Assembly (NCBI GenBank): GCA_020348985.1 | Contig: CP070761.1 | Coordinates: 1,107,713 to 1,171,712 of the forward strand | Length of the DNA: 64,000 nt | Source: Candidatus Thorarchaeota archaeon | Lineage (GTDB): Archaea; Asgardarchaeota; Thorarchaeia; Thorarchaeales; Thorarchaeaceae | Direction: 5' to 3' | Shown: positions 50,957 to 61,726 of the stretch, one piece after another | How positions within the stretch are numbered: the stretch's first letter is position 1 | Layout: each line of letters starts with the position of its first letter | The notes under the pieces: generated by a model | Seen by the model: only the letters and a program-made list of their open reading frames with translations | Told to the model about the DNA's origin: nothing | Database searches by the model: none | Made by a program: the position numbers and the translations under genes

Positions 50957-52600
50957 CTATTCAGACATTGCCATGCGAGTTGCACCAACTCTGATTATCA
51001 GAAGCCCAACAGCTATCAAAGCGATACTTGGAGCAAGTAGGGCAAGGGCCATATTGCTGGAATCGATTATCATTGAGATGAGAAGCGCCGGTTGTGATAC
51101 CAAGAATATGGTCAACATTGTGGCACCAGTGTTGTCTTTGAATATCTGGCTTCCAGCATCTTCGTAGTTTGGGTTGTTAGCGGTAACGCCTATACTGATG
51201 AGAATCGAACCCATGACTGCAATTGACGCGCATCCAAGAATGACGAATGCATCTGCAAGGGGCAAGCCAATAATCAGTGTAATGAGAAGGGCAGTAATCG
51301 CGGCCATTGGGAACCCGAATATGAATGACTGGCCGATTCTTGCCTTCATGTACTTCATCACCCCTTTTGGGGTGCTCTTCAACATCCATAGTTGGTCCTT
51401 TGAGTCCAAGAACCCGATTCCACCGAATGTGAGACCGCCAATCACGGATAGTAGGTTCACAGCCGCCAATCCGGAAACGAAGAGCCTGAGCTCACAACTG
51501 AGATCCAAGAAGGCAGCACTGTTGACCATAAGGGGAAATACTACAGCAATCACTACTCCGAAAGCAATCTTCGAGATGTTCTGTGCCTTCCTTCCGAAGT
51601 CCTTCATTGCTGTAACCAGTAATGTACCATAAGGCGTGGGAAGGACCCATCTTATTCCTTGCAGCACAGGATTCTCTCTTCCGGTTGTCACAATCTGCTC
51701 GTAACGGGGGCCGAAGCCAAGTTTGAATACTCGATCGGATGTCAAGAAAGCCAGACCTATCATCAACAGCGTAAATGCTGACAGTAAGAACGTACAAAGC
51801 TGAGGATTGCTGCCCAAGACAGACTCGTAGGCCAATATGCTGGATGCAGGCAGATTGATTCCGTTGAACAGGATGGTTATCCAAGTAATCAAATCCGCAC
51901 CCCAGGTGAACGGGAATAACATGGCACCTTGAGCACCGAGAACGCTGGAAATGGTCTCAGTGGAGAAAAGCATTCCATAGAGAGGGAGAATGGCGACGAA
52001 GCCAAGAATTACAGAAAGGGCTTTTGCTATATCATTGCCTCTGGGAGAGTCGCCAATCTTTGCTTGTATCGCAGTTGTCAGCAGAGTAGACGTCCAGAGT
52101 GTAATCAAAGCCACGAAGAACAATGCCAAATACATCAGAGCCTGTCCAACCAGAGTGACCTGATAGACTAGTGCAAAGGGTGAAATAACACAAGGCGCAA
52201 TGAAGAGAACTGCAAGACCGTAGATTGGAACTCTCCCCATGAATGTGCCCGTCATAATGTCCCTTGTTCGAACGTTATTGCTGAGCATTATCTCCCATTG
52301 CCCAATCTTGATCTCTTGAAGAGCATAGGAAATCGGATAGACGAGCCACATCAGCCACAAGAACATGATAAGAGAACGCATGTATTCAGGAAATGATGCA
52401 ATCAGAGAAGCTTCGAGTGTGGCACCAAACCAGTCCATCACAAAAGAAGCCAGGAATGGAGCCACAATCAAAGCCCAGATTGTGCCGAGAACGAGGAGGG
52501 CTCCGCCTAATGTCCTACGGCGCTTCCTTTGTCTTGAGGTCAGGACAAGAAACTCGACCCTTGCAACATGATACCACTTTCCCGTCATGACCTCGCCCAT
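50957..52600 (-). CDS. ABC exporter membrane subunit, paralogue 2
   Basis: About 12-13 TM; shares ALQEIKIGQWEI, GDSPRGNDIAKAL and KDFGRK with 54562-56250. Confidence 0.8.
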   Translation of the reverse strand: MGEVMTGKWYHVARVEFLVLTSRQRKRRRTLGGALLVLGTIWALIVAPFLASFVMDWFGATLEASLIASFPEYMRSLIMFLWLMWLVYPISYALQEIKIGQWEIMLSNNVRTRDIMTGTFMGRVPIYGLAVLFIAPCVISPFALVYQVTLVGQALMYLALFFVALITLWTSTLLTTAIQAKIGDSPRGNDIAKALSVILGFVAILPLYGMLFSTETISSVLGAQGAMLFPFTWGADLITWITILFNGINLPASSILAYESVLGSNPQLCTFLLSAFTLLMIGLAFLTSDRVFKLGFGPRYEQIVTTGRENPVLQGIRWVLPTPYGTLLVTAMKDFGRKAQNISKIAFGVVIAVVFPLMVNSAAFLDLSCELRLFVSGLAAVNLLSVIGGLTFGGIGFLDSKDQLWMLKSTPKGVMKYMKARIGQSFIFGFPMAAITALLITLIIGLPLADAFVILGCASIAVMGSILISIGVTANNPNYEDAGSQIFKDNTGATMLTIFLVSQPALLISMIIDSSNMALALLAPSIALIAVGLLIIRVGATRMAMSE

Positions 52601-52608
52601 TCCACAGC

Positions 52609-52854
52609 CTAACTTGCCTGACTAGGTACTACTGCTTTTCGAAGTTGTCTTCCCAGATACCATATTATGGACATGGCAATGACGGCAAGAACAATGGAAA
52701 CCGCAAATCGTGCAGGACCCATTTCCTCTCCGGGAATCAAATCTCCAATAGCATTCAACGCAATTATCATAATGACAATGACAACTGCAGTGGAATTCTC
52801 AGTGTTCTTGTCTCTAGTCACTGTTCCTGTTCCATTGGTGTCAACCGAATTCAT
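52609..52854 (-). CDS. Small two-TM membrane protein
   Basis: Two hydrophobic helices; GGAGG RBS; lies between the peptidase and permease genes. Confidence 0.7.
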   Translation of the reverse strand: MNSVDTNGTGTVTRDKNTENSTAVVIVIMIIALNAIGDLIPGEEMGPARFAVSIVLAVIAMSIIWYLGRQLRKAVVPSQAS

Positions 52855-52883
52855 GCTTCAGATTCCTCCACTAATTCACTATC

Positions 52884-54395
52884 CTACGTGCCAATCCTTC
52901 GTCTCAGGACGAGAGCAAGCACAACTACCACACCGAAAGCTCCAGTCAACGGCAAAATCAGTGACATTGGCTGTGCCTGGCTTTCCAACGCGGCCTGAAG
53001 TGCGATCCCTGCGGCCCTCCACGAATCTGCAGTAGCAAGCAAATGACCTGCTATGTCAGCCAAATCCTGTCTGTGGTTCTCAAGAACTACATCGAGGTTT
53101 CTACTCGAGTCGAATTCCTCGACCATTTCAAAGAACGTGTTGGATAATAGAGAGTCGTGATTGGCCAGGTAATCGAAATCAACCAATGTTCCGTTGTCAC
53201 TCAGTGCGTCCAAGTGTGTTAGGGCATTCTGACCTGCGACGAGAAAATCGGTCAAATCAAAGTCAGTCAGAAGTCTTGGGAGTGACTCCAGAGCTGTGCG
53301 GTATGAGAGATACTGGAGTGTCAACATGAACTCGAGAAACATCCCAAGATTGGCCAGACGATCAATCTGGTCCTCGAAGTTGTCATATTCCTCAATGTAG
53401 AGAGCAACACCTTCTGGAGTGATGTCATAGCTGAGCCCTCGGAATGCCTTTTCGCCGAAGTTTAGGAAGAAAGCGTCTTCGTCCGTAAAGGGGATATAGG
53501 ATTCTTGCGCTCCAAGCAGCCTTGACGCCACAAACTCACCGAGTTCTGTTTGGAAGTCAGGTTTCGTCCCATTCTCAGGTTTTATTGTCGTCGTCCCGTA
53601 GGCAAATGCACCCCAAGCATTGTTCAGCTGAGAGTAGTTCATTGTGTAACGCCATCTGCCATCTTCGGGGTAACCAAAATCGTCACCAAAGGCGCCTACA
53701 CCAGGATCCAAAATCTCAACGGTCTCGCTCGTATCATTATACCCTATCGCCAGGACAGCATGACCTGAGACAGGGGCAGTTGTGTTTTGGAAAAGTCCAT
53801 AGTCACGTAGGATTTGATAGTCGTCAGGGGGGAGATAGTAGGGATCAGTCCACAAGACAACGGGATATCCCTCGTCCAGCGTGTTCTTCATGATCTCAAA
53901 CGCATCATTCCAGCCATGGATTGTATTGATGTCCGGATTCCACTGCGACCATAGCTCAATAGCTGTGTCGACCCAAGGAGAGGTCTCGCTAAGATAGAAT
54001 TTCTGTTCTAGTCCGTAGAAGTCACAAATGGGGACCAATTGGCCGACCTGAATGTAAGCAGAACCAGCTAGGAACGTCATTGTGTCGTTAAAGCGAATGT
54101 ATGCTGCCGAGAATCCGATTCCCGATGCTGCAAAGAACTCGTGGAGAGTCAAAGGGACCTCTGCGCCGCCAAGAGCCATTGTAACTGCAGCCCAGAAACA
54201 GAATCCGCTAATCTCCTGCCATACATAAGGTGTATCCTGAATCAGTGCTGAACCATCAATGGAAATGGTATGGTCAGGACCCGCAATTACAGGCCCTGAC
54301 CTATTGTCGTGTAAGGAGATAGGAAACAATGATAGCGAAAGCAGTAGGAGGACCATGATGGTCATTCGTGTCTTAGGTGAACGAACGACCACCAT
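52884..54395 (-). CDS. Surface-anchored papain-fold C39/BtrH-like cysteine peptidase
   Basis: Signal peptide; YVWQEISGFC (Q..C), G.PV.L..DPYYLP, GHAVLAIGY, ILDP; C-terminal TM followed by RRR. Confidence 0.75.
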   Translation of the reverse strand: MVVVRSPKTRMTIMVLLLLSLSLFPISLHDNRSGPVIAGPDHTISIDGSALIQDTPYVWQEISGFCFWAAVTMALGGAEVPLTLHEFFAASGIGFSAAYIRFNDTMTFLAGSAYIQVGQLVPICDFYGLEQKFYLSETSPWVDTAIELWSQWNPDINTIHGWNDAFEIMKNTLDEGYPVVLWTDPYYLPPDDYQILRDYGLFQNTTAPVSGHAVLAIGYNDTSETVEILDPGVGAFGDDFGYPEDGRWRYTMNYSQLNNAWGAFAYGTTTIKPENGTKPDFQTELGEFVASRLLGAQESYIPFTDEDAFFLNFGEKAFRGLSYDITPEGVALYIEEYDNFEDQIDRLANLGMFLEFMLTLQYLSYRTALESLPRLLTDFDLTDFLVAGQNALTHLDALSDNGTLVDFDYLANHDSLLSNTFFEMVEEFDSSRNLDVVLENHRQDLADIAGHLLATADSWRAAGIALQAALESQAQPMSLILPLTGAFGVVVVLALVLRRRIGT

Positions 54396-54561
54396 CAGTC
54401 ACCCCTGGATCCGACATTTAACAGCTTCAATGCACTGTCGACTTCACGTTGGGTTGGATTATTGCTCAGTCGCAAATCGTACATGGTTTTGGGGCGCTGG
54501 TGAAATCCAGCACCATTCTTACCGTGTCGATATCTGAGTATTCCCGGCCCCTCCATTAGAG

Positions 54562-56250
54562 CTACACCTCAACCTTGCCCAGGCTTCTGACGCCCAAGAA
54601 CAGCATCAGGCCACCCATGAGCAACAATGCCACTGGACCCATGATGGCTTGTGTGAACCAGAAACCATCTACACCGAAGATGTTCTCAATGACGCGAAAG
54701 ATGTTGACATCCAATGCGATACTGAAGAATATGTCGATGAAGAGGGGAGCAATCAGTGTAAACTGGGTCAACAACATGGAGCCTATTAGAACACTCTGAT
54801 GGGCTGGAGACTTCGTGTCTTCATAGTTAGGGTTCTGAGCTGTCATGCCCATGCTTACCATGACAGCACCGCAAACTATGATGTATGAAGATGCAATCAT
54901 CTGCAACGCCATCAATGGCTCAAGTGCAAACATGACACTGACTACAACACTTGGAGCAAGACTTAGAGGAAAGGCCAGTAGGAATCCTGACGCGAGTCTG
55001 GCACGCATGAAGCGAGAAGCACCAGATGGTGCACTCCGGATTATCCAAAGCTGGTCCTTGCTCTCAAGGAATCCTGTTCCTGCGAATGGGAAGACTCCGA
55101 CAACACCAATCATTATGCCAATCATTGGCAGAATATCCATGGCCGTGACGGTGTCACCATCGTAGACAGCAATCTGGGACATGATAATCGGAAGTACTAC
55201 CGCCAGTACAACACCGTAGAGAATCTTTGAAATATTCTGAACCTTTCTGCCAAAGTCCTTCAGACTCACCACTGTCAACGCACCAAAAGATCCCTTGGCT
55301 GCTCTCCGGACTCCGCGTATCACAAAGTTCTCTCGACCTACAGTTGTGACGGTCTCAGTGCGCACACCGGCACTGATTGTGAAAACTCTGTCTGCAGCAC
55401 TTAATGCAATTGGCACCCATACCAAGCCGAATGCTGCTGTTAGGAGTAGACTCGTCCACATGTCGAGCTGCAAAATCGCCCCAAAGCCCAGTATCTGAGA
55501 GCCAGTCAAACCAATACCATTGAAGGCTATCGCAATCCAGCTGACCAAGTCTGCTGGCCATGTGAATGGCATTAGCAGAAATGCATTCATTCCTAGAATA
55601 TCAGACAACACTGGCATGAAGAACATCACACCGTACATAGGCACTATCACAATCAGTGCAATAACGAAGGTCAATGCCTTAGCTATGTCGTTTCCGCGTG
55701 GTGAATCCCCAAGTCTTGCTTGGACCAATGCCGTCACGAAGTTGGAGAGCCAGATGGTTGAAAGAACCATGGCTGCAATCGCACTGTATACCAAAGCCTG
55801 ACCTAGGAACGAAACTTCAAACGCTAGCATGAATGGAGATATCATTAGGGGAGCAAGTATCACTACAACCAATCCGTAGAATGGTATCTTGCCAGCGAAA
55901 GTGCCAATGATTATGTCCTTTGTTCTCACGTTGTTTGAGAGGAAAATCTCCCATTGACCAATCTTAATCTCCTGTAGGGCGAAGGACAGTGGGTATAATA
56001 GCAACAATATCCACAGGAACAGCATTACTGTACGCATGAGTCCAGGGAACATAGACATCAACAGTAGTCGAATCTGTGACATTGGAATCAGCGACTGTAT
56101 GATGAAGCCCATGATCGTTGGTGCCAAGTACGCGGCCCATACGATAGCTAATGCATACATGCTTGCCACGGTGACTGTTCTGTGGCTCCTGAAGCTCGAG
56201 GTCAAGACGTAGAACTCAGCCTTCGCGATGCTTAGCCACTTTCGGGTCAA
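54562..56250 (-). CDS. ABC exporter membrane subunit, paralogue 1
   Basis: Directly downstream of the ABC ATPase; about 12-13 TM; paralogous to 50957-52600. Confidence 0.82.
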   Translation of the reverse strand: MTRKWLSIAKAEFYVLTSSFRSHRTVTVASMYALAIVWAAYLAPTIMGFIIQSLIPMSQIRLLLMSMFPGLMRTVMLFLWILLLLYPLSFALQEIKIGQWEIFLSNNVRTKDIIIGTFAGKIPFYGLVVVILAPLMISPFMLAFEVSFLGQALVYSAIAAMVLSTIWLSNFVTALVQARLGDSPRGNDIAKALTFVIALIVIVPMYGVMFFMPVLSDILGMNAFLLMPFTWPADLVSWIAIAFNGIGLTGSQILGFGAILQLDMWTSLLLTAAFGLVWVPIALSAADRVFTISAGVRTETVTTVGRENFVIRGVRRAAKGSFGALTVVSLKDFGRKVQNISKILYGVVLAVVLPIIMSQIAVYDGDTVTAMDILPMIGIMIGVVGVFPFAGTGFLESKDQLWIIRSAPSGASRFMRARLASGFLLAFPLSLAPSVVVSVMFALEPLMALQMIASSYIIVCGAVMVSMGMTAQNPNYEDTKSPAHQSVLIGSMLLTQFTLIAPLFIDIFFSIALDVNIFRVIENIFGVDGFWFTQAIMGPVALLLMGGLMLFLGVRSLGKVEV

Positions 56251-56254
56251 GACA

Positions 56255-57025
56255 TCACCTCCAGGCCAGGAGTGCTTCGCGGTCTACTTGACCTCCAACT
56301 ATCTGCAGGTAGGCTTCCTCAAGGTCGCTGACATGGGCTGCCTGGATTATATCCTCAGGAGAGCCAAGTGTGACTAGCTCACCTTCGTTCAGAATCCCTA
56401 TGACGTCACAGACATCTTCGGCGAAGCTTGTCATGTGCGTGCAGATGAAGAAGCTCGTCTCGGTCTCTTCTGCGAGGACAAGAATCAAGTCCTTCACAAG
56501 TGCACTTGCAGAGGGATCAAGCCTTGAAGTGGGCTCGTCCAGAAAGACTAGCTTTGGCTCATGTAGCAGAGTAGAGGCTACCAACACTTTTTGCTTCATA
56601 CCAGAAGAGTACGACTCCAGAAGGTCATCTTGTCTTCCCTCAAGACCAAGCATTCCAAGTAATGCGTCAATCCTCTTCATGAGAGACTCGCCATTGTGGT
56701 CGTTGAGTGCGCCAATGAACTCAAGAAACTCAACAGCTGAGAGTTTCGAGTAAAGCCCCGGTGACTCAGGAAGGAGACCAGTGATTGCTTTGATCTCGTC
56801 TCTCTGGGTGTCAATATCAAGTCCGCAGACCTTTCCTCTCCCGCTCGTCTGTTTGAGCAAGCCAGACAGAATACGAACGGTGGTTGTCTTGCCGGCCCCA
56901 TTAGGACCAAGGAAACCGAATCTGCTTCCAGCACGTACCTCTAGATCGAGGTCCACAACTGCGCGAACTGGCCCGAAGGTCTTGTTCAGCGCTTCTGTTT
57001 GAATCACTATACCGTTTCCGGTCAT
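56255..57025 (-). CDS. ABC transporter ATP-binding protein (exporter type)
   Basis: GPNGAGKTT, YSSGMKQK, LDEPT, H-loop. Confidence 0.96.
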   Translation of the reverse strand: MTGNGIVIQTEALNKTFGPVRAVVDLDLEVRAGSRFGFLGPNGAGKTTTVRILSGLLKQTSGRGKVCGLDIDTQRDEIKAITGLLPESPGLYSKLSAVEFLEFIGALNDHNGESLMKRIDALLGMLGLEGRQDDLLESYSSGMKQKVLVASTLLHEPKLVFLDEPTSRLDPSASALVKDLILVLAEETETSFFICTHMTSFAEDVCDVIGILNEGELVTLGSPEDIIQAAHVSDLEEAYLQIVGGQVDREALLAWR

Positions 57026-57037
57026 CGTTAATCACTT

Positions 57038-57135
57038 GTAAATCTTTACCGATTACAGGTATACTTAGCATAATGTTTATATATAAATCTTTACCATAAA
57101 GCAGTAGAGATTAACCCGGAATACTTAAGTTCCGG
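57038..57135. promoter_or_regulatory. Divergent promoter with repeated GTAAATCTTTAC-like operators
   Basis: TAAATCTTTACC at 57039-57050 and 57084-57095, degenerate inverted copy at 57104-57115, TTTATATATA at 57076-57085, CCGGAA-N8-TTCCGG at 57116-57135. Confidence 0.7.
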
Positions 57136-57154
57136 AAGAACACGAGGAAACAAA

Positions 57155-57763
57155 ATGGGACTACTCTCAATTCACGAATCAGTTGTCTGGTGGGAATACC
57201 AGCACGGTAAATCCACTGGCGATATATTCAGTGAGTATGAGAGACCCATGCCAACTCCGAAACATGTCCTTGATGTCTACGGGCGTCTAATTGACGAAAA
57301 AACAAAGAGCGATGAGGACAAGAAGAAGGAGAAGGAAAAGATTCAGACAACAGAGCTGAAGAGTGCAGCTTACGTGTCACGTGTTCTCAGCAGGGCGAAG
57401 GAAAAGATTGGCAAGGAGCTCAGTAATCATGCCAACAGCCATCGTCTTGATGTTGAGACAGTCTTGGATGACAAGGGGTACTTGAAGGGCTTCGATTATC
57501 AGGCCAATACGGAAGTATTCATCATCTTCACTTTGGATTTAGGAGTGGTAGTCTGGTACAGGCACGACTCTTATGCTGGGAAGCTCTGTCCCGACTGTCC
57601 GAAGGAAGAGGAATGTAGACAGACACTTGATACGACTCTGCTTGAATACGACTTGACGCTTAGGCCGGATCAAGAAGAGCTTCACATGACACGGCAGTCG
57701 ATTGCAATCTTCAACAAGCTTGCGGCCAAGGAAGTTCCTCGCTACAAGAGACAAGAAGAGTAA
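57155..57763 (+). CDS. Putative transcriptional regulator (sigma-70 region-4-like HTH with insertion; C-terminal Cys cluster)
   Basis: LS..E..VWW....GKST.DI ... S.AYVSRVL.RAKEKI; CPDC-x5-C. Confidence 0.55.
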   Translation: MGLLSIHESVVWWEYQHGKSTGDIFSEYERPMPTPKHVLDVYGRLIDEKTKSDEDKKKEKEKIQTTELKSAAYVSRVLSRAKEKIGKELSNHANSHRLDVETVLDDKGYLKGFDYQANTEVFIIFTLDLGVVVWYRHDSYAGKLCPDCPKEEECRQTLDTTLLEYDLTLRPDQEELHMTRQSIAIFNKLAAKEVPRYKRQEE

Positions 57764-57776
57764 TGGATGTGAGATA

Positions 57777-58526
57777 ATGAGTTCGGGATACGATGAACGA
57801 GTGATTAAGCCTCCTTTGGAGTCAGTGGCGTTTGGTAGGGTATTCAAGCCCACAGCGTCGCTTCGCAACAAGTACTGGTTTATAGCCATCATCACCGCCC
57901 TTATCATGTATTTGACGACTATTGGAACATTCTTCGGAATAATGTACATGGTCTATTCAATCAATCAGACTCTGTTTCAATGGCAGACCTGGTTCGACTC
58001 GTTCTGGGGACCAGTGAACTTCTGGTTCTGGGGAATTGCCTTGGTGATTCTGATACCTTACATTGTCGGCGTACCTATCTACCTGAACAGGTTCGAGTAC
58101 TCTGTAAGAGGCGAGTCCGGTGAAACGATGCCGGAGGTTTATGTCAAGAAGGGCATCATTAACGTAACCGTCAAGCATGTTCCTCTGAGAACGATTACCA
58201 ATATATCAACAAGGACAGGACCGTTTGACAGACTCTTCAAGATTGGCAATGTTGAGATTCACACAGCAGGGCAATCTGGCAGCTACTATGAAGCAGGAAA
58301 GCCGGAGGAAAAAATCGAGGGAATCGTGTTCTACGAAGAACTTAGAGACTACATACTTGGTGAGATGCGGAAGCTGAAGGGCACTTATGCAGTTGGAACC
58401 GAGGTACTCACACCTGATGAGACTCCTATACCTGGAAACATAGACGAAGCTATTCTCACGACGCTTCGACAGCTTCGCGACATCTTGAGAAGAATGGACG
58501 AGAAACTAGACCGAGGAGGATATTGA
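57777..58526 (+). CDS. Two-TM plus bacterial PH domain (bPH_2, YdbS-like) protein 1
   Basis: Y.V....E.YVKKGII....KHVP...ITNI....GP.DRLF.IG.V.I.TAG; start at ATG 57777. Confidence 0.88.
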   Translation: MSSGYDERVIKPPLESVAFGRVFKPTASLRNKYWFIAIITALIMYLTTIGTFFGIMYMVYSINQTLFQWQTWFDSFWGPVNFWFWGIALVILIPYIVGVPIYLNRFEYSVRGESGETMPEVYVKKGIINVTVKHVPLRTITNISTRTGPFDRLFKIGNVEIHTAGQSGSYYEAGKPEEKIEGIVFYEELRDYILGEMRKLKGTYAVGTEVLTPDETPIPGNIDEAILTTLRQLRDILRRMDEKLDRGGY

Positions 58527-58528
58527 AA

Positions 58529-58636
58529 ATGCGACCGTTGAGTAGACGCGTGCTGGCCATATTGAGCGTTATGGGCACCTTCTCGAGTCTCTTCATCTAC
58601 TTTCTACTGATTAGTCTATCAGGAGGGTTCTCATAA
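58529..58636 (+). CDS. Single-TM micropeptide A, 35 aa (MRPLSRRVLAILSVMGTFSSLFIYFLLISLSGGFS)
   Basis: GAGGAGG 9 nt upstream; stop overlaps the next start (TAATG); exactly fills the gap. Confidence 0.75.
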   Translation: MRPLSRRVLAILSVMGTFSSLFIYFLLISLSGGFS

Positions 58637-59376
58637 TGGGTAAGGAAAAGAGTAGCAAAGTAATCAAACCACCACTGGAGAGGATTGCAAGCGGGAAGGT
58701 CTTCAGACCAGCGAGAGCTTTCATCTACAAGGGATGGTTTGATGGCATCTTGGTTGCCATTGGAATTTGGTTGTTTGGAGTAGTGTGTGCGTTTGGAATC
58801 GGTTGGATTGTTGTCGTAGCAGAAGGCATTCTTGTTGAAGAATTCTGGGGAGCGGTAGCCTACTGGTGGGGACCCGCCAATTTCTGGTATTGGCTGATAA
58901 CGGCAATATGGCTGACCCCTGCGGTGATAATCTGGCCGTTCTATGTTCGAAGAATCGAATACTCTGTAATTGCAGAAAGCGGGAAAACAATGCCCGAGAT
59001 CTACGTCAGGAAAGGCATAATCACGATTACTGAGAAGCACGTTCCGTTCCGCACGATCACAAACATCTCAAGTCGCGCCGGTCCGATTGACAGGCTCTTC
59101 GGAATAGGGAGCGTGTGGATCCAGACCGCGGGATACTCAGGCGGCGCTCAGGCGGGAGCAAAACCCGAGGAGAAGTTGGAGGGCATTCACATCTTTGAGG
59201 CGGTTAGGGACTTTGTCCTCAGAGAGCTTCGTAGGTTCAGAGACCCCTATGTGACTGGAACAGAAGTCGTATCTCCAAGACCTGAAGCGGCCGTGACAGA
59301 AGGGACATCCTCGCAGGAAGAAATCCTTGGTGTTCTGAGAGAGATCAGAGATCTGCTCAGGCGCGAGAGAGAATAG
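58636..59376 (+). CDS. Two-TM plus bPH_2 protein 2 (paralogue)
   Basis: VIKPPLE..A.G.VF.P, ESG.TMPE.YV.KGII, KPEEK.EGI shared with protein 1. Confidence 0.88.
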   Translation: MGKEKSSKVIKPPLERIASGKVFRPARAFIYKGWFDGILVAIGIWLFGVVCAFGIGWIVVVAEGILVEEFWGAVAYWWGPANFWYWLITAIWLTPAVIIWPFYVRRIEYSVIAESGKTMPEIYVRKGIITITEKHVPFRTITNISSRAGPIDRLFGIGSVWIQTAGYSGGAQAGAKPEEKLEGIHIFEAVRDFVLRELRRFRDPYVTGTEVVSPRPEAAVTEGTSSQEEILGVLREIRDLLRRERE

Positions 59377-59386
59377 CAGTCTAAGA

Positions 59387-59575
59387 GTGATGAGAATGGT
59401 TTCAGCAAGCAGAGTACTGGGAATCATCCTAGTGGTCGCGGGATTCGTTCTTATCCTCTTCCGAGTTGTCGAAGCCATAGCAGGATTCCCCTTCCTCATG
59501 GAGCAATTGCTATTGGGATTCTTCGTTTTGTTGATAGGGCTATCATTGATGGGGAGACTACGTAAGATTGGATAG
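59387..59575 (+). CDS. Two-TM small membrane protein B (59-62 aa)
   Basis: Two hydrophobic helices; homologous to the N-terminal part of 59737-60006. Confidence 0.75.
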   Translation: MMRMVSASRVLGIILVVAGFVLILFRVVEAIAGFPFLMEQLLLGFFVLLIGLSLMGRLRKIG

Positions 59576-59587
59576 GAGAAATGTAAA

Positions 59588-59692
59588 TTGAGTAGCAGAA
59601 TCGTTGCGCGTTTCATTGTTTTACTGATTGGGATTATCCTGTTCGTGATTTTCCTGTTTGGGTTTTTCATGATGGGCGGATCTTTCTCGTAG
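59588..59692 (+). CDS. Single-TM micropeptide C, 34 aa (MSSRIVARFIVLLIGIILFVIFLFGFFMMGGSFS)
   Basis: AGGAG 9 nt before TTG; clear similarity to peptide G and to the C-terminus of D. Confidence 0.78.
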   Translation: MSSRIVARFIVLLIGIILFVIFLFGFFMMGGSFS

Positions 59693-59736
59693 AACTTCAT
59701 GAATGGACGTGAGTATCTGACGGGATGTGGTGACGA

Positions 59737-60006
59737 TTGGTTTTAGGAAGACGAGACCGAGGAGTCGTTTTGGCTATCGCAGGACTCTTCCTAATGTTCT
59801 TTCAGATAATCGATCTAGTCATTGGAGGGTCCTACTTCGGCGGCTTTGGACTCCTGGGAGCATTCATCTTTCTGATTGGATTGACCGTTGTCGGAAGAGC
59901 ATTGACTAGCAGAAAGGCTGCATGGTATTCTACCTTCTTCATTGGCATTGTGTTGTTTGTGTTCTTCCTAGTCGTCTACCTAATGAAGGGAGGAATGCTA
60001 CCCTAG
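59737..60006 (+). CDS. Three-TM small membrane protein D (apparent fusion of B-like and C-like units)
   Basis: GGTGA RBS; LLGAFIFLIGLTVVGR resembles B; IGIVLFVFFL...GG resembles C. Confidence 0.78.
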   Translation: MVLGRRDRGVVLAIAGLFLMFFQIIDLVIGGSYFGGFGLLGAFIFLIGLTVVGRALTSRKAAWYSTFFIGIVLFVFFLVVYLMKGGMLP

Positions 60007-60023
60007 GATAGGAGTCTGCTAGA

Positions 60024-60119
60024 ATGGTTACAGTTCAAAGAGTTGTCTTCAAAATCGCCCTCATGATTGTGGCAATTGTGCTTCTCCTGATAGGATTGTT
60101 CCTCTTTTCGATGTTCTAG
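60024..60119 (+). CDS. Single-TM micropeptide E, 31 aa (MVTVQRVVFKIALMIVAIVLLLIGLFLFSMF)
   Basis: AGGAG 9 nt upstream; R-x3-K followed by 21 mostly hydrophobic residues, like its siblings. Confidence 0.72.
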   Translation: MVTVQRVVFKIALMIVAIVLLLIGLFLFSMF

Positions 60120-60199
60120 GCGGGGTGGCCCAGTCTAGGCTCTTCAAACCCATGAGATAAAAGGGAGAGGAACGGTCTGTTTCCGGTTAGGATTCTACT

Positions 60200-61468
60200 A
60201 TGGCCATAGAGGACACACCATTCGTGTACAGAACACGATTAGACAAAAGCCTCTATGCATTCTATTACGCTACTGAGGGTTTCGCCACCACTGGAATCCT
60301 TACTTTTCTGCCCCTATACGTGAGGGATTATGTCCTTATCCCTGAGGCCCTTCTTGGGATCCTTTTGGCAATAGCAGCGATTCCAGCATTCATTAAGGTT
60401 TTCTATGGCCTTGTTAGCGATTCTAGATCCATTGGTGGGATGGGGCACAGAAGACCCTATGTACTCCTCTCAGTTCCGATGACTATTGGAGCATGGCTAC
60501 TGTTTCCATTAGTCACCGAGGCGGTTCTGTTCACTACATTGGTATTTCTTGCCTCTGTTGGATTCTCGATAGGAGACACTGCTGTTGATGCTTGGGCAGT
60601 AGAGATAACTCCAACGAAAGAGAGGGGATCAATGATGGGGATTGCTTGGGGAGCTCAGGGGATTGCTTCGGTCATGGGAGCGCTTGCAACCACCATCGTT
60701 GGACCGGCATATGGATTCACAACAGCTTTCGCCTTGCTTGGGATAGTCCAAGGATTTGGTGGAATTGTCTGGTTTGTATTCGCAAGAGAGAAGCCTATTG
60801 TGCACAGGAAGACGATCCACGGTACACTAGGATCATTGAAAGAGGAACTGAGACACAGGTATCTTTGGCTTGCATTCTTGGCCTTCATATTCGGCGGCTT
60901 TGTGTTTGGAGTGGGCTCCAATTTCATGACCTTGTTCTTTGAAGATGTTGTAGGCGCATCCGAGACAGAGATAGGAGTGTTGGTTCTTGTCTGGTCTCTG
61001 ATGTTCTTTGTGGGCGGAGCGATTGGTGGTTCAGTTTATGATAGATTCAAAGACCATCGGACAGGAATCTACACAATAGCGCCGGTCTATGCCATCTCAC
61101 TGTTCATGCTCACCCTCAATCAACATGGGGCATATGAGCTGGCATACGCGACTGCGATTTTCTACGGCCTAGGCAGCGGACTAACGACGGCAGCAGTCAT
61201 GGGGTTTGCTGCTCGGATAACACCTGCCGTTGTCACTGGAACTGTATTTGCAGTTATTACGTCTTTTGTGAACATAGGCCGGGCAGGGCTTGGGAATGTG
61301 TACTTGGGCTACATGGTGACGAACTACGACTACACACTGGCGTTCACTTTAGGAGCACTCATCGCATTTCCCATTATCTTGTTAGCTCGATTCATTGATC
61401 ACCCAAGACTTCATGAAGAGCTTGTTGAAAAACCTGCTATTGAAGAATCAACCTACGAAAATGAATAA
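60200..61468 (+). CDS. MFS transporter (AmpG/BT1-like)
   Basis: K.FYG..SD......G.RRPY, D.AVDAWAVE.....ERG, about 12 TM. Confidence 0.9.
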   Translation: MAIEDTPFVYRTRLDKSLYAFYYATEGFATTGILTFLPLYVRDYVLIPEALLGILLAIAAIPAFIKVFYGLVSDSRSIGGMGHRRPYVLLSVPMTIGAWLLFPLVTEAVLFTTLVFLASVGFSIGDTAVDAWAVEITPTKERGSMMGIAWGAQGIASVMGALATTIVGPAYGFTTAFALLGIVQGFGGIVWFVFAREKPIVHRKTIHGTLGSLKEELRHRYLWLAFLAFIFGGFVFGVGSNFMTLFFEDVVGASETEIGVLVLVWSLMFFVGGAIGGSVYDRFKDHRTGIYTIAPVYAISLFMLTLNQHGAYELAYATAIFYGLGSGLTTAAVMGFAARITPAVVTGTVFAVITSFVNIGRAGLGNVYLGYMVTNYDYTLAFTLGALIAFPIILLARFIDHPRLHEELVEKPAIEESTYENE

Positions 61469-61498
61469 CCTCAAAGGCGAGAGAGTCGTAGTTCTGCC

Positions 61499-61606
61499 AT
61501 GACACCTACGAGACTCATCCTCAAGGTCATTCTTCTGGTCTTTGTCGTTTTGCTTCTGGTAATCATCCTGTTGATTCAGTTTGGTCTTGTTCCAGGCCTT
61601 TCCTAG
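61499..61606 (+). CDS. Single-TM micropeptide F, 35 aa (MTPTRLILKVILLVFVVLLLVIILLIQFGLVPGLS)
   Basis: Same R-x3-K plus hydrophobic architecture; its TAG overlaps the RBS of G. Confidence 0.72.
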   Translation: MTPTRLILKVILLVFVVLLLVIILLIQFGLVPGLS

Positions 61607-61618
61607 GAGTGATGATAG

Positions 61619-61726
61619 ATGAGTGGGAGGATTGTCCTGAGAATCGCTGTTCTATTTCTGCTGATTCTATTACTCGCAATCTTTTTGCTTGGTTACTTTG
61701 TGCTCGGTGGAGGACTTTTTGGCTAG
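61619..61726 (+). CDS. Single-TM micropeptide G, 35 aa (MSGRIVLRIAVLFLLILLLAIFLLGYFVLGGGLFG)
   Basis: AGGAGTGA RBS; aligns without gaps with peptide C (MS.RIV.R...IFL.G.F..GG). Confidence 0.8.
   Translation: MSGRIVLRIAVLFLLILLLAIFLLGYFVLGGGLFG

Follow-up and report, generated by a model that had tools for sequence, protein, structure and literature searches.

A candidate regulator-controlled membrane module for small hydrophobic peptides in Thorarchaeota

The locus at positions 50957–61726 of a 64,000-nucleotide (nt) stretch of Candidatus Thorarchaeota DNA (the window) carries a gene for a 202-amino-acid (aa) regulator, called R, two genes for bPH_2 membrane proteins, a series of genes for micropeptides with a single transmembrane (TM) segment and, facing these, the genes of an ABC exporter. 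These features are best explained as a single membrane module of Thorarchaeota, controlled by R, that handles small and very hydrophobic peptides, a reading to which we assign a probability of roughly 45%. The genes stand in two divergent arms: the ABC/permease/peptidase block lies on the minus strand, the block of R, bPH_2, micropeptide and MFS transporter genes lies on the plus strand, and an intergenic spacer of 129 bp (57026–57154) is common to both. Every gene that an initial annotation of this DNA had listed is indeed present where it had been placed. The host genome is a single contig of 3.16 Mb, of which the window covers positions 1107713–1171712.

In the mechanism that we propose, R would bind the palindrome GTAAA-N2-TTTAC in the shared promoter and thereby control both its own operon, comprising R, the bPH_2 genes, the single-TM micropeptides and the 2-TM proteins, and the facing operon for the ABC-2-type exporter. 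The bPH_2 paralogues would come together in the membrane as a heteromer, equivalent in unfused form to the four bPH domains that YdbS and YdbT, or DdE and DdF, have between them, and this assembly would act as a chaperone, a translocation aid or a means of protection. The ABC exporter would then extract or expel peptides, with the micropeptides of the locus itself as the likeliest cargo or partners.

The shared control region and the linkage of the two arms

The features that carry this reading are as follows.

57155–57763, plus strand: R, the 202-aa regulator, with a helix-turn-helix (HTH) fold in its AlphaFold2 (AF2) model and alignment A1.
57777–58526, plus strand: bPH1, a YdbS-like bPH_2 membrane protein of 249 aa (PF03703, 39.9 bits; gathering cutoff 22 bits).
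58636–59376, plus strand: bPH2, a YdbS-like bPH_2 membrane protein of 246 aa (PF03703, 37.7 bits).
56255–57025, minus strand: a DrrA-like ABC ATPase (PF00005, 4e-24; TIGR01188 drrA, 2.7e-59, a match below the equivalog cutoff).
54562–56250, minus strand: permA, a fused ABC-2-type permease of 562 aa with 12 TM segments, the conserved partner of the ATPase.
57026–57154, no strand: the shared divergent control region, given by the sequence of the spacer.
57038–57049, near the ATPase start: the operator palindrome GTAAATCTTTAC, a perfect GTAAA-N2-TTTAC.
57076–57083, in the shared spacer: the TATA-like sequence TTTATATA.
57084–57094, directly after the TATA-like sequence: the second palindrome copy TAAATCTTTAC.
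57104–57115, in the shared spacer: a degenerate third box.

The strongest evidence for a common regulon comes from the operator pattern. The shared promoter holds the sole perfect copy of the 12-mer GTAAA-N2-TTTAC in the 3.16-Mb genome, and a relaxed 11-mer is found genome-wide only at 57038–57049 and 57084–57094. Among random windows of 205 bp, ~5 per 100,000 contain this 11-mer. The motif lies within 200 bp upstream of R in 29/41 ABC-linked loci and in 24/35 other loci, including those of Bathyarchaeia, and is thus kept upstream of R across two phyla, with additional copies towards the ABC side in the ABC-linked loci. Because a genome-unique palindrome sits in the shared promoter and recurs upstream of R in relatives, the two arms are probably co-regulated. 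The pattern argues that R autoregulates and that both arms constitute one regulon, with GTAAA-N2-TTTAC as the likely binding site of R. On the plus strand, the gaps between genes from R to position 61726 are ~80 nt at most, so this whole stretch can be one transcript.

The conservation of this arrangement was assessed in related loci. Sixty relatives were searched with four queries, from which 29 loci were fetched, and a further 80 loci were fetched by means of the R alignment (109 in total), with ~140 related loci compared overall. Linkage upstream of R was counted in the 61 loci with at least 3 kb of sequence there, and the makeup of the gene package in the 58 loci with both flanks. The locus of a near relative, called L120, served for close comparison (bPH1 86% identical, DNA ~78% identical).

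R adjoins a bPH_2 gene in essentially every locus (~29 of the 60 relatives searched, and a large majority of the 80 loci fetched with the R alignment), and this adjacency extends to Bathyarchaeia, where R is 53–56% identical over its full length. The permA gene lies within 6 kb upstream of R in 39/61 loci and the ATPase gene within 600 bp upstream in 34/61, and the peptidase gene is found in 20/61. The initial annotation had named beforehand, as a refuting outcome, that the ABC block and the bPH_2/peptide block be unlinked in relatives; the two are instead found linked, and the view that they are functionally tied holds.

Furthermore, the components vary together. An ABC exporter is present in 37/58 loci, of which 34 have at least two bPH_2 genes and 25 have a micropeptide gene that starts within 130 nt of a bPH_2 stop codon; such loci usually carry 2–5 bPH_2 paralogues and mostly one or two single-TM micropeptide genes. 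Among the 21 loci lacking the exporter, 18 have a single bPH_2 gene, and the whole set holds at most one micropeptide open reading frame (ORF), which looks doubtful. The two arms therefore appear to belong together, since the micropeptides, the additional bPH_2 copies and the ABC exporter vary as a set, while R and one bPH_2 gene can stand alone.

The regulator, the bPH_2 paralogues and the micropeptides

The AF2 model of R is confident, with a predicted local distance difference test (pLDDT) score of 93.9. Residues 1–93 match archaeal transcription factor 8hno, sigma-70 region 4 and NarL/GerE domains in VIA-align, with all top rows in this class, at Z scores that are modest (5–5.9) and come without a supporting sequence-family match (root-mean-square deviation 1.0–2.0 Å over 46–53 residues). 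The N-terminus would thus be an HTH like that of sigma-70 region 4 or LuxR with an inserted helical hairpin, and the alignment shows a correspondingly split HTH motif. Because consistent matches to a confident model coincide with this split motif in the sequence, R is probably a DNA-binding protein, and the earlier regulator call gains a fold of the sigma-70-region-4/LuxR type. Searches of other kinds returned nothing of use: Foldseek found no PDB match to the model at E ≤ 0.001, the sequence has no Pfam or NCBIfam match, its profile has none among PDB sequences, and a Pfam scan of 21 R orthologues gave noise only. The C-terminus is modelled as an alpha/beta domain with a four-stranded sheet and helices, in which H137, C145, C148 and C154 are invariant.

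The R family is small, with 94 cluster representatives among 1.84 billion. Shorter R paralogues of ~150–170 aa occur several times per genome. A 144-aa paralogue (HTH plus Cys-bearing domain) lies outside the window at 508893–509327 of the host contig, directly upstream of three genes whose products, 400–470 aa long, open with a hydrophobic segment that resembles a signal or TM segment. Control of envelope genes may be a general role of R-type regulators. An R–bPH_2 pair 56% identical to the archaeal one is also carried by DATLAV010000020.1 (L111), which is labelled ‘Patescibacteria group bacterium’ and is probably a mis-binned archaeal contig.

The two bPH_2 proteins of the locus are 47% identical to each other, and related proteins are named ‘membrane protein YdbS’ in public sources. 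Two hydrophobic segments, predicted to form a TM hairpin, precede the conserved bPH core (alignment A3), and an N-terminal VIKPP motif and a C-terminal helix are conserved in the bPH_2 proteins of the module. All copies are single-domain, with two here and 1–5 in relatives, four being the commonest number. In a quick maximum-likelihood tree of 97 copies, the proteins cluster by array position across genera (support of 100 for the last-copy clade and 89 for the third-copy clade); bPH1 groups with first-position paralogues of other genomes with a support of 99, and bPH2 falls in the position 2 group. This pattern indicates that the paralogues are old, position-specific and specialised. Because they are so, and because their number is commonly four, a fixed heteromer is suggested. 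A fast-duplicating immunity array engaged in an arms race was also considered and rejected, because the paralogues group by position across genera. A complex prediction for bPH1, bPH2 and a 37-aa peptide gave a score of 0.00, the fold of the partner being itself uncertain, and counts neither for nor against an interaction.

Seven small membrane-protein genes are interspersed with and follow the bPH_2 genes. Codon-position differences are given for positions 1/2/3 relative to L120.

58529–58636, plus strand: a single-TM micropeptide of 35 aa from ATG, between the two bPH_2 genes, with its ORF open from a TTG at 58523; ribosome-binding-like GAGGAGG 9 nt upstream.
59387–59575, plus strand: a 2-TM small protein of 62 aa, a hydrophobic hairpin.
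59588–59692, plus strand: a single-TM micropeptide of 34 aa with a TTG start; L120 orthologue (20/34 residues identical; differences 11/2/20); ribosome-binding-like GGAGA 8 nt upstream.
59737–60006, plus strand: a 3-TM protein of 89 aa, fusion-like.
60024–60119, plus strand: a single-TM micropeptide of 31 aa; L120 orthologue (21/31; 9/3/20); ribosome-binding-like AGGAG 10 nt upstream.
61499–61606, plus strand: a single-TM micropeptide of 35 aa; L120 orthologue (28/35; 8/1/11).
61619–61726, plus strand: a single-TM micropeptide of 35 aa; L120 orthologue (23/34; 14/2/11); ribosome-binding-like AGGAG 9 nt upstream.

The peptides, 31–37 aa long, are uniformly hydrophobic TM helices with a 15-residue hydropathy of 2.8–4.0. 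The genome holds 20,940 ORFs of 26–45 aa, only 15 of which are strongly hydrophobic over a 15-residue stretch and have a basic N-terminus; 4 of these 15 lie on the plus strand of this 4.1-kb stretch of the locus, where ~0.01 is expected. The most likely start of the ORF between the bPH_2 genes is the ATG at 58529, which corrects the earlier call, and the ORF at 59588–59692 is an addition to the earlier gene list. The first micropeptide is tightly embedded, starting within 3 nt of the bPH1 stop codon and overlapping the bPH2 start with its own stop; it has an L120 orthologue at the same position and positional equivalents after the first bPH_2 gene in other genera.

All five single-TM peptides have orthologues in L120, which are 58–80% identical, and only 1–6 of the 20–33 base differences per gene fall at codon position 2. 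In relatives, a single-TM ORF of 30–34 aa starts from 3 nt before to 65 nt after a bPH_2 stop codon. Two orthologous micropeptide types recur, one after the first bPH_2 gene and one after the last, and in nine loci a conserved 2-TM protein of 70 aa comes next after the first type. Both types are open in 9–10 divergent loci, with codon-position differences of 466/137/582 and 541/197/679. Since coding TM segments are expected to differ little at position 2, as seen here, these ORFs are read as coding, which indicates that the micropeptides are real genes. The earlier placing of the micropeptides in one system with the exporter is supported, as they are conserved, coding and found almost only where the ABC exporter is present.

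The 62-aa 2-TM protein is built like the conserved 70-aa protein of nine other loci, and L120 has a 56-aa 2-TM ORF nearby. Residues 1–86 of the 89-aa protein align by tblastn, at 37% identity, to the stretch that spans the 62-aa and 34-aa ORFs, and it looks like a fusion of a 2-TM unit with a single-TM unit; the ORFs listed for L120 include no equivalent.

Butcher and Helmann are said to have found in 2006 that ydbST confers resistance to a Bacillus antimicrobial peptide. To our knowledge, bPH_2 proteins (YdbS/YdbT) are widespread, and the sole genetics on them, from Firmicutes, ties them to membrane-active peptides, either in exporting these or in resisting them. The main rival to the peptide-handling module draws on this side of their biology, and we regard it as possible and somewhat doubtful. 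It holds that the locus is an envelope-stress or resistance module, in which R, alone or with a bPH_2 sensor, detects membrane damage or foreign membrane-active compounds and induces the bPH_2 proteins and an ABC detoxification pump, the peptides and 2-TM proteins being accessory subunits or feedback modulators. Several observations favour it. R–bPH_2 pairs that stand by themselves and keep an operator, as in Bathyarchaeia and several Thorarchaeota, are what a self-contained sensor and effector would give. The invariant His/Cys cluster of R might respond to a metal or to redox state, the orthologous groups of bPH_2 paralogues are stable, and the peptides have the appearance of ordinary TM helices. 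In B. subtilis, ydbST is part of the sigma-W envelope-stress regulon (PMC3498285). However, peptides that are subunits of bPH_2 proteins are expected beside single bPH_2 genes too, and they are seen in at most 1 of the 21 exporter-less loci. The host genome and L120 have also expanded the peptides to at least five while losing two bPH_2 paralogues, which is odd for subunits of fixed stoichiometry. In addition, the peptides evolve faster than R and bPH1 (58–80% versus 86–89% identity), with a nonsynonymous-to-synonymous codon ratio of ~1 as opposed to ~0.3–0.4.

The exporter arm and accessory genes

The remaining genes of the locus are as follows.

52884–54395, minus strand: a papain-fold Cys-His-Asp enzyme (the peptidase), with a Peptidase_C39_2/BtrH_N N-domain and a helical C-domain (PF13529).
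52609–52854, minus strand: tm81, an 81-aa 2-TM protein with an L120 orthologue.
50957–52600, minus strand: permB, a second 12-TM ABC-2-type permease of 547 aa, paralogous to permA.
60200–61468, plus strand: a BT1/AmpG-like MFS transporter (PF07690, 1e-41), inside the peptide array.

The ATPase has orthologues in relatives that are 72–84% identical, and those of permA, 47–74% identical, stand divergent beside R. Neither permA nor permB has a Pfam or NCBIfam match. By language-model and structure comparison, the nearest neighbours of both are 12-TM ABC-2-type permeases. Those of permA are clusters bearing PF16949, PF09847 or PF16962, and its C-terminal half superposes on 6-TM ABC2_membrane models with TM-scores of 0.68–0.70 by target.

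The initial annotation had counted the second permease as a system part. However, permB (42% identical to permA) has no counterpart in L120, the nearest relative, in which the tm81 orthologue and the peptidase gene come directly after the SDR gene; a few other Thorarchaeota have an orthologue-like second permease, in some cases together with a second ATPase of its own. By this distribution, permB appears to be a lineage-specific add-on. The small tm81 protein has no Pfam match above cutoff, and it shares 52/78 residues with its L120 orthologue, with codon-position differences of 19/10/47 that show a coding pattern. In many relatives, the ABC/peptidase operon is closed by a 96-aa MarR/TrmB winged-HTH gene (95–101 aa; L011:3253-3540, L013:11065-11355 and L015:4044-4334 among others). 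This gene is missing at the host locus, and the host genome has at least six paralogues elsewhere. The genes flanking the locus, an SDR gene and a xylose-isomerase-like TIM-barrel gene, are both unrelated to it.

The gap of 166 nt between permA and the peptidase gene holds a 53-aa ORF (54395–54556, minus strand), which is called a gene in a public relative. We rejected it as a gene, since its codon-position differences relative to L120 (8/13/12) show no coding pattern. Several relatives have a second ATPase gene at the position of this gap, which may be a remnant or a regulatory spacer. Elsewhere, the host genome carries three further permeases and three ATPases (72–78% identical) without bPH_2 genes; these copies lie outside the window at 538299–540706, 642153–644566, 887787–888554 and 1839454–1841088 of the host contig. 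Small ORFs, either upstream or divergent, accompany those at ~538–541 kb and 642–645 kb, and one of these ORFs reads like a winged-HTH protein.

The peptidase matches PF13529 at 27.4 bits (cutoff 24), as do 8/8 aligned homologues (best 3e-11), and its match to BtrH_N is sub-threshold (20.8 versus a gathering score of 29.7); it has no NCBIfam match. Q60, C66, H212 and D230 are invariant in the alignment, and the Cys-His-Asp triad is present in all 8 homologues. A Foldseek search of its AF2 model (pLDDT 77) against the PDB gave CtaG, AziU3/U2 and CcbD as best matches (E 1e-5 to 1e-3, probability 1.0, TM-score by target 0.46–0.59), and the C39 domain of PCAT1 reached an E value of only ~0.1–0.3. 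No match to PF03412 was found in the peptidase or in any of the 8 homologues. Because the protein has an N-terminal signal anchor and a C-terminal TM segment followed by three arginines (RRR), it should act outside the cell, as a cell-surface hydrolase or transpeptidase. This predicted location makes acyl transfer from a carrier-protein thioester unlikely; no carrier-protein gene lies near the peptidase gene. The C-terminal hydrophobic helix and RRR (window 52884–52970) are kept in all homologues and resemble archaeosortase tripartite sorting signals.

An unlinked paralogue of the peptidase, ~40–43% identical, lies at 874347–875843 of the host contig (locus L008:8336-9883) beside a gene for a 785-aa DUF3160 protein. 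Such an unlinked copy was found in 35/36 same-family genomes searched and is probably the ancestral, housekeeping one, which suggests that the peptidase of the locus is an accessory part. The C39 leader-peptidase role given to this enzyme in the initial annotation does not fit what was found: the enzyme is in only 20 of the 61 loci, copies a family-wide unlinked gene, is predicted to face outwards and has a CtaG/CcbD-like fold. The double glycine near the C-termini of the peptides is confined to the host genome and L120; peptides of other peptidase-bearing loci are without it. Processing of the peptides at Gly-Gly by a C39 enzyme was therefore rejected, as the motif is unconserved, the enzyme would be on the wrong side of the membrane and its fold is closest to BtrH-like enzymes.

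These scattered copies bear on whether the two arms are merely adjacent, with an ordinary ABC-2 exporter operon standing beside an unrelated R–bPH_2 operon and the small ORFs being incidental. The permease and ATPase copies without bPH_2, the unlinked peptidase paralogue and the existence of R–bPH_2 without an ABC exporter are all compatible with such an accident. We nevertheless consider it highly improbable, because the divergent arrangement is kept across many genera, the shared promoter has operator copies at either side, the presence of micropeptides and the expansion of bPH_2 go with that of the exporter, and the small ORFs show a coding substitution pattern.

The MFS transporter, listed as a system part in the initial annotation, has no match in the 109 fetched loci and is shared with L120 only. 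It thus appears to be a genus-level passenger outside the conserved module. Its position inside the peptide array of both genomes means that it could import a product, as might be expected of peptide signalling of the SHP/Rgg kind. Under that explanation, the peptides would sit in the membrane as precursors. A C-terminal fragment would be cut off, perhaps by the Cys enzyme that faces outwards, and the ABC transporter would export it in the manner of PptAB, after which it would be sensed and feed back on R. The peptides are indeed built like SHP precursors (short, with a basic N-terminus, a hydrophobic body and a small C-terminal tail, with Gly-Gly near the end in the host), the adjacent regulator gene has predicted autoregulation, and the PptAB ABC exporter secretes SHPs and enterococcal pheromones (PMC5167397, PMC7564271, PMC4173765). 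However, R is modelled as an HTH with a small alpha/beta Cys domain, which is not an RRNPP/TPR receptor, and no TPR family match that would indicate a peptide-binding domain was found for it. The Gly-Gly tail and the MFS gene are unconserved beyond this lineage, the peptidase is missing from two thirds of the loci and an importer is conserved in none, which together make signalling of this kind quite improbable.

Known systems and the weighing of the peptide-handling module

The closest known counterpart of the peptide-handling module is the enterocin DD14 cluster, ddABCDEFGHIJ. Its proteins DdE and DdF, with one and three bPH domains respectively, are both needed to export the leaderless bacteriocin EntDD14, and their genes are accompanied by those for a small TM protein, a protein of HTH type and an ABC transporter (PMC7332713, PMC8657885). 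The initial annotation had cited this precedent correctly, both bPH2 proteins being needed for EntDD14 export (PMC7332713, PMC8657885), and bPH/PH proteins recur in leaderless-bacteriocin clusters (PMC11580447). Like the archaeal module, the DD14 cluster has genes for small unmodified leaderless peptides, an ABC transporter, a small HTH-type protein (DdC), a 2–3-TM small protein (DdD) and no modifying enzymes. It has four bPH domains in total, and the archaeal relatives most often have four single-domain paralogues. The archaeal module differs in its host and in that its bPH domains are on separate proteins, its regulator has an operator of its own and comes from an undescribed family, its permease is a fused 12-TM protein of the ABC-2 type where that of DD14 is FtsX-like and has a periplasmic adaptor, and its peptides are plain TM helices that are not known to be antimicrobial. 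The earlier analogy with leaderless bacteriocins therefore stands for the cluster, in which bPH_2 proteins and an ABC transporter are present together and modifying enzymes are absent, but not for the peptides, which are classic TM helices and not cationic and amphipathic.

The individual parts have further relatives. B. subtilis YdbS/YdbT (COG3402/COG3428, PF03703) share the TM hairpin followed by a cytosolic bPH_2 domain and are encoded by tandem genes; the archaeal proteins differ in their size of ~245 aa, N-terminal VIKPP motif and C-terminal helix, and the module lacks the three-domain YdbT form and is controlled by an adjacent dedicated regulator, not by an extracytoplasmic function (ECF) sigma factor. 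The peptidase has the two-domain fold and Cys-His-Asp triad of the BtrH/CtaG/CcbD/AziU3 transacylases (PF14399) and of Peptidase_C39_2 (PF13529; PDB 3erv), but those transacylases are cytosolic and use carrier-protein thioesters, whereas the archaeal enzyme has a signal anchor and a C-terminal TM segment. PCAT-type C39 domains (PF03412; PCAT1) are of the same papain-like clan and are likewise encoded beside an ABC exporter; the archaeal enzyme, in contrast, is unfused to the transporter and predicted on the opposite side of the membrane, and the archaeal peptides lack a conserved double-glycine site. The SHP/Rgg systems with PptAB also combine very short hydrophobic peptide genes beside a regulator with an ABC transporter as exporter (PMC5167397, PMC7564271). 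They differ in that the fold of R is unrelated to RRNPP and the archaeal peptides are longer, of full TM length, with neither a conserved importer nor a processing protease in the module.

PADLOC gave no match for 8 proteins, and the literature searched holds no description of an archaeal module of R, bPH_2, ABC and micropeptide genes, the nearest mention being of bPH2 proteins in Thermoplasmatales (PMC10354927). Loci that combine bPH_2 and ABC proteins in peptide handling are known; what is new is the undescribed regulator family with its operator, the unfused bPH_2 paralogues and the micropeptides of TM type.

Several observations weigh against the peptide-handling module. The loci compared are related, and the counts given above are not independent events. 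Ten ABC-linked loci have no micropeptide by the criteria used, and some Thorarchaeota, like Bathyarchaeia, have R–bPH_2 pairs with neither an ABC exporter nor peptides, so that these peptides are not needed for the core role of bPH_2. The host genome has only the position-1 and position-2 types of bPH_2, the usual four being reduced to two. A hidden Markov model of the peptides built without the host genome ranked host peptides 2nd and 4th of the 20,940 ORFs, at E values of 0.35 and 2.7 that are not significant, so that homology of the micropeptides across genera rests on position and architecture. Furthermore, the peptides resemble ordinary single-span TM helices, with a basic N-terminus and ~20 apolar residues, and they could be resident subunits or modulators instead of cargo. 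EntDD14 A and B have grand average of hydropathy (GRAVY) values of ~0.2 and -0.1, and known leaderless bacteriocins are cationic and amphipathic (PMC7332713).

The micropeptides may, as was first suggested, serve in antagonism, with export, toxicity and immunity as its possible elements. In a more far-reaching version of this idea, which we hold to be unlikely, the micropeptides would be a new class of ribosomal, unmodified, TM-helix-like peptides that are exported against competitor membranes or as signals, with a four-subunit bPH_2 device for translocation and self-protection, an ABC-2 motor and control by R through one operator.

R would define an archaeal transcription-factor family for which there is no Pfam or NCBIfam model, and for which a likely binding site is now at hand. 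The locus adds several conserved micropeptide genes of a kind often left uncalled by routine annotation. The archaeal module may also be viewed as a naturally ‘unfused’ bPH_2 system, with four old single-domain paralogues and conserved partner micropeptides, and its dedicated regulator with a clear operator and its conserved ABC partner offer testable handles on the function of bPH_2 assemblies. Were the more far-reaching version true, the micropeptides of these bPH_2/ABC loci would be a new kind of archaeal peptide, and should they serve as antagonists or signals outside the cell, the module would be the first system of its sort to be proposed for Asgard archaea.

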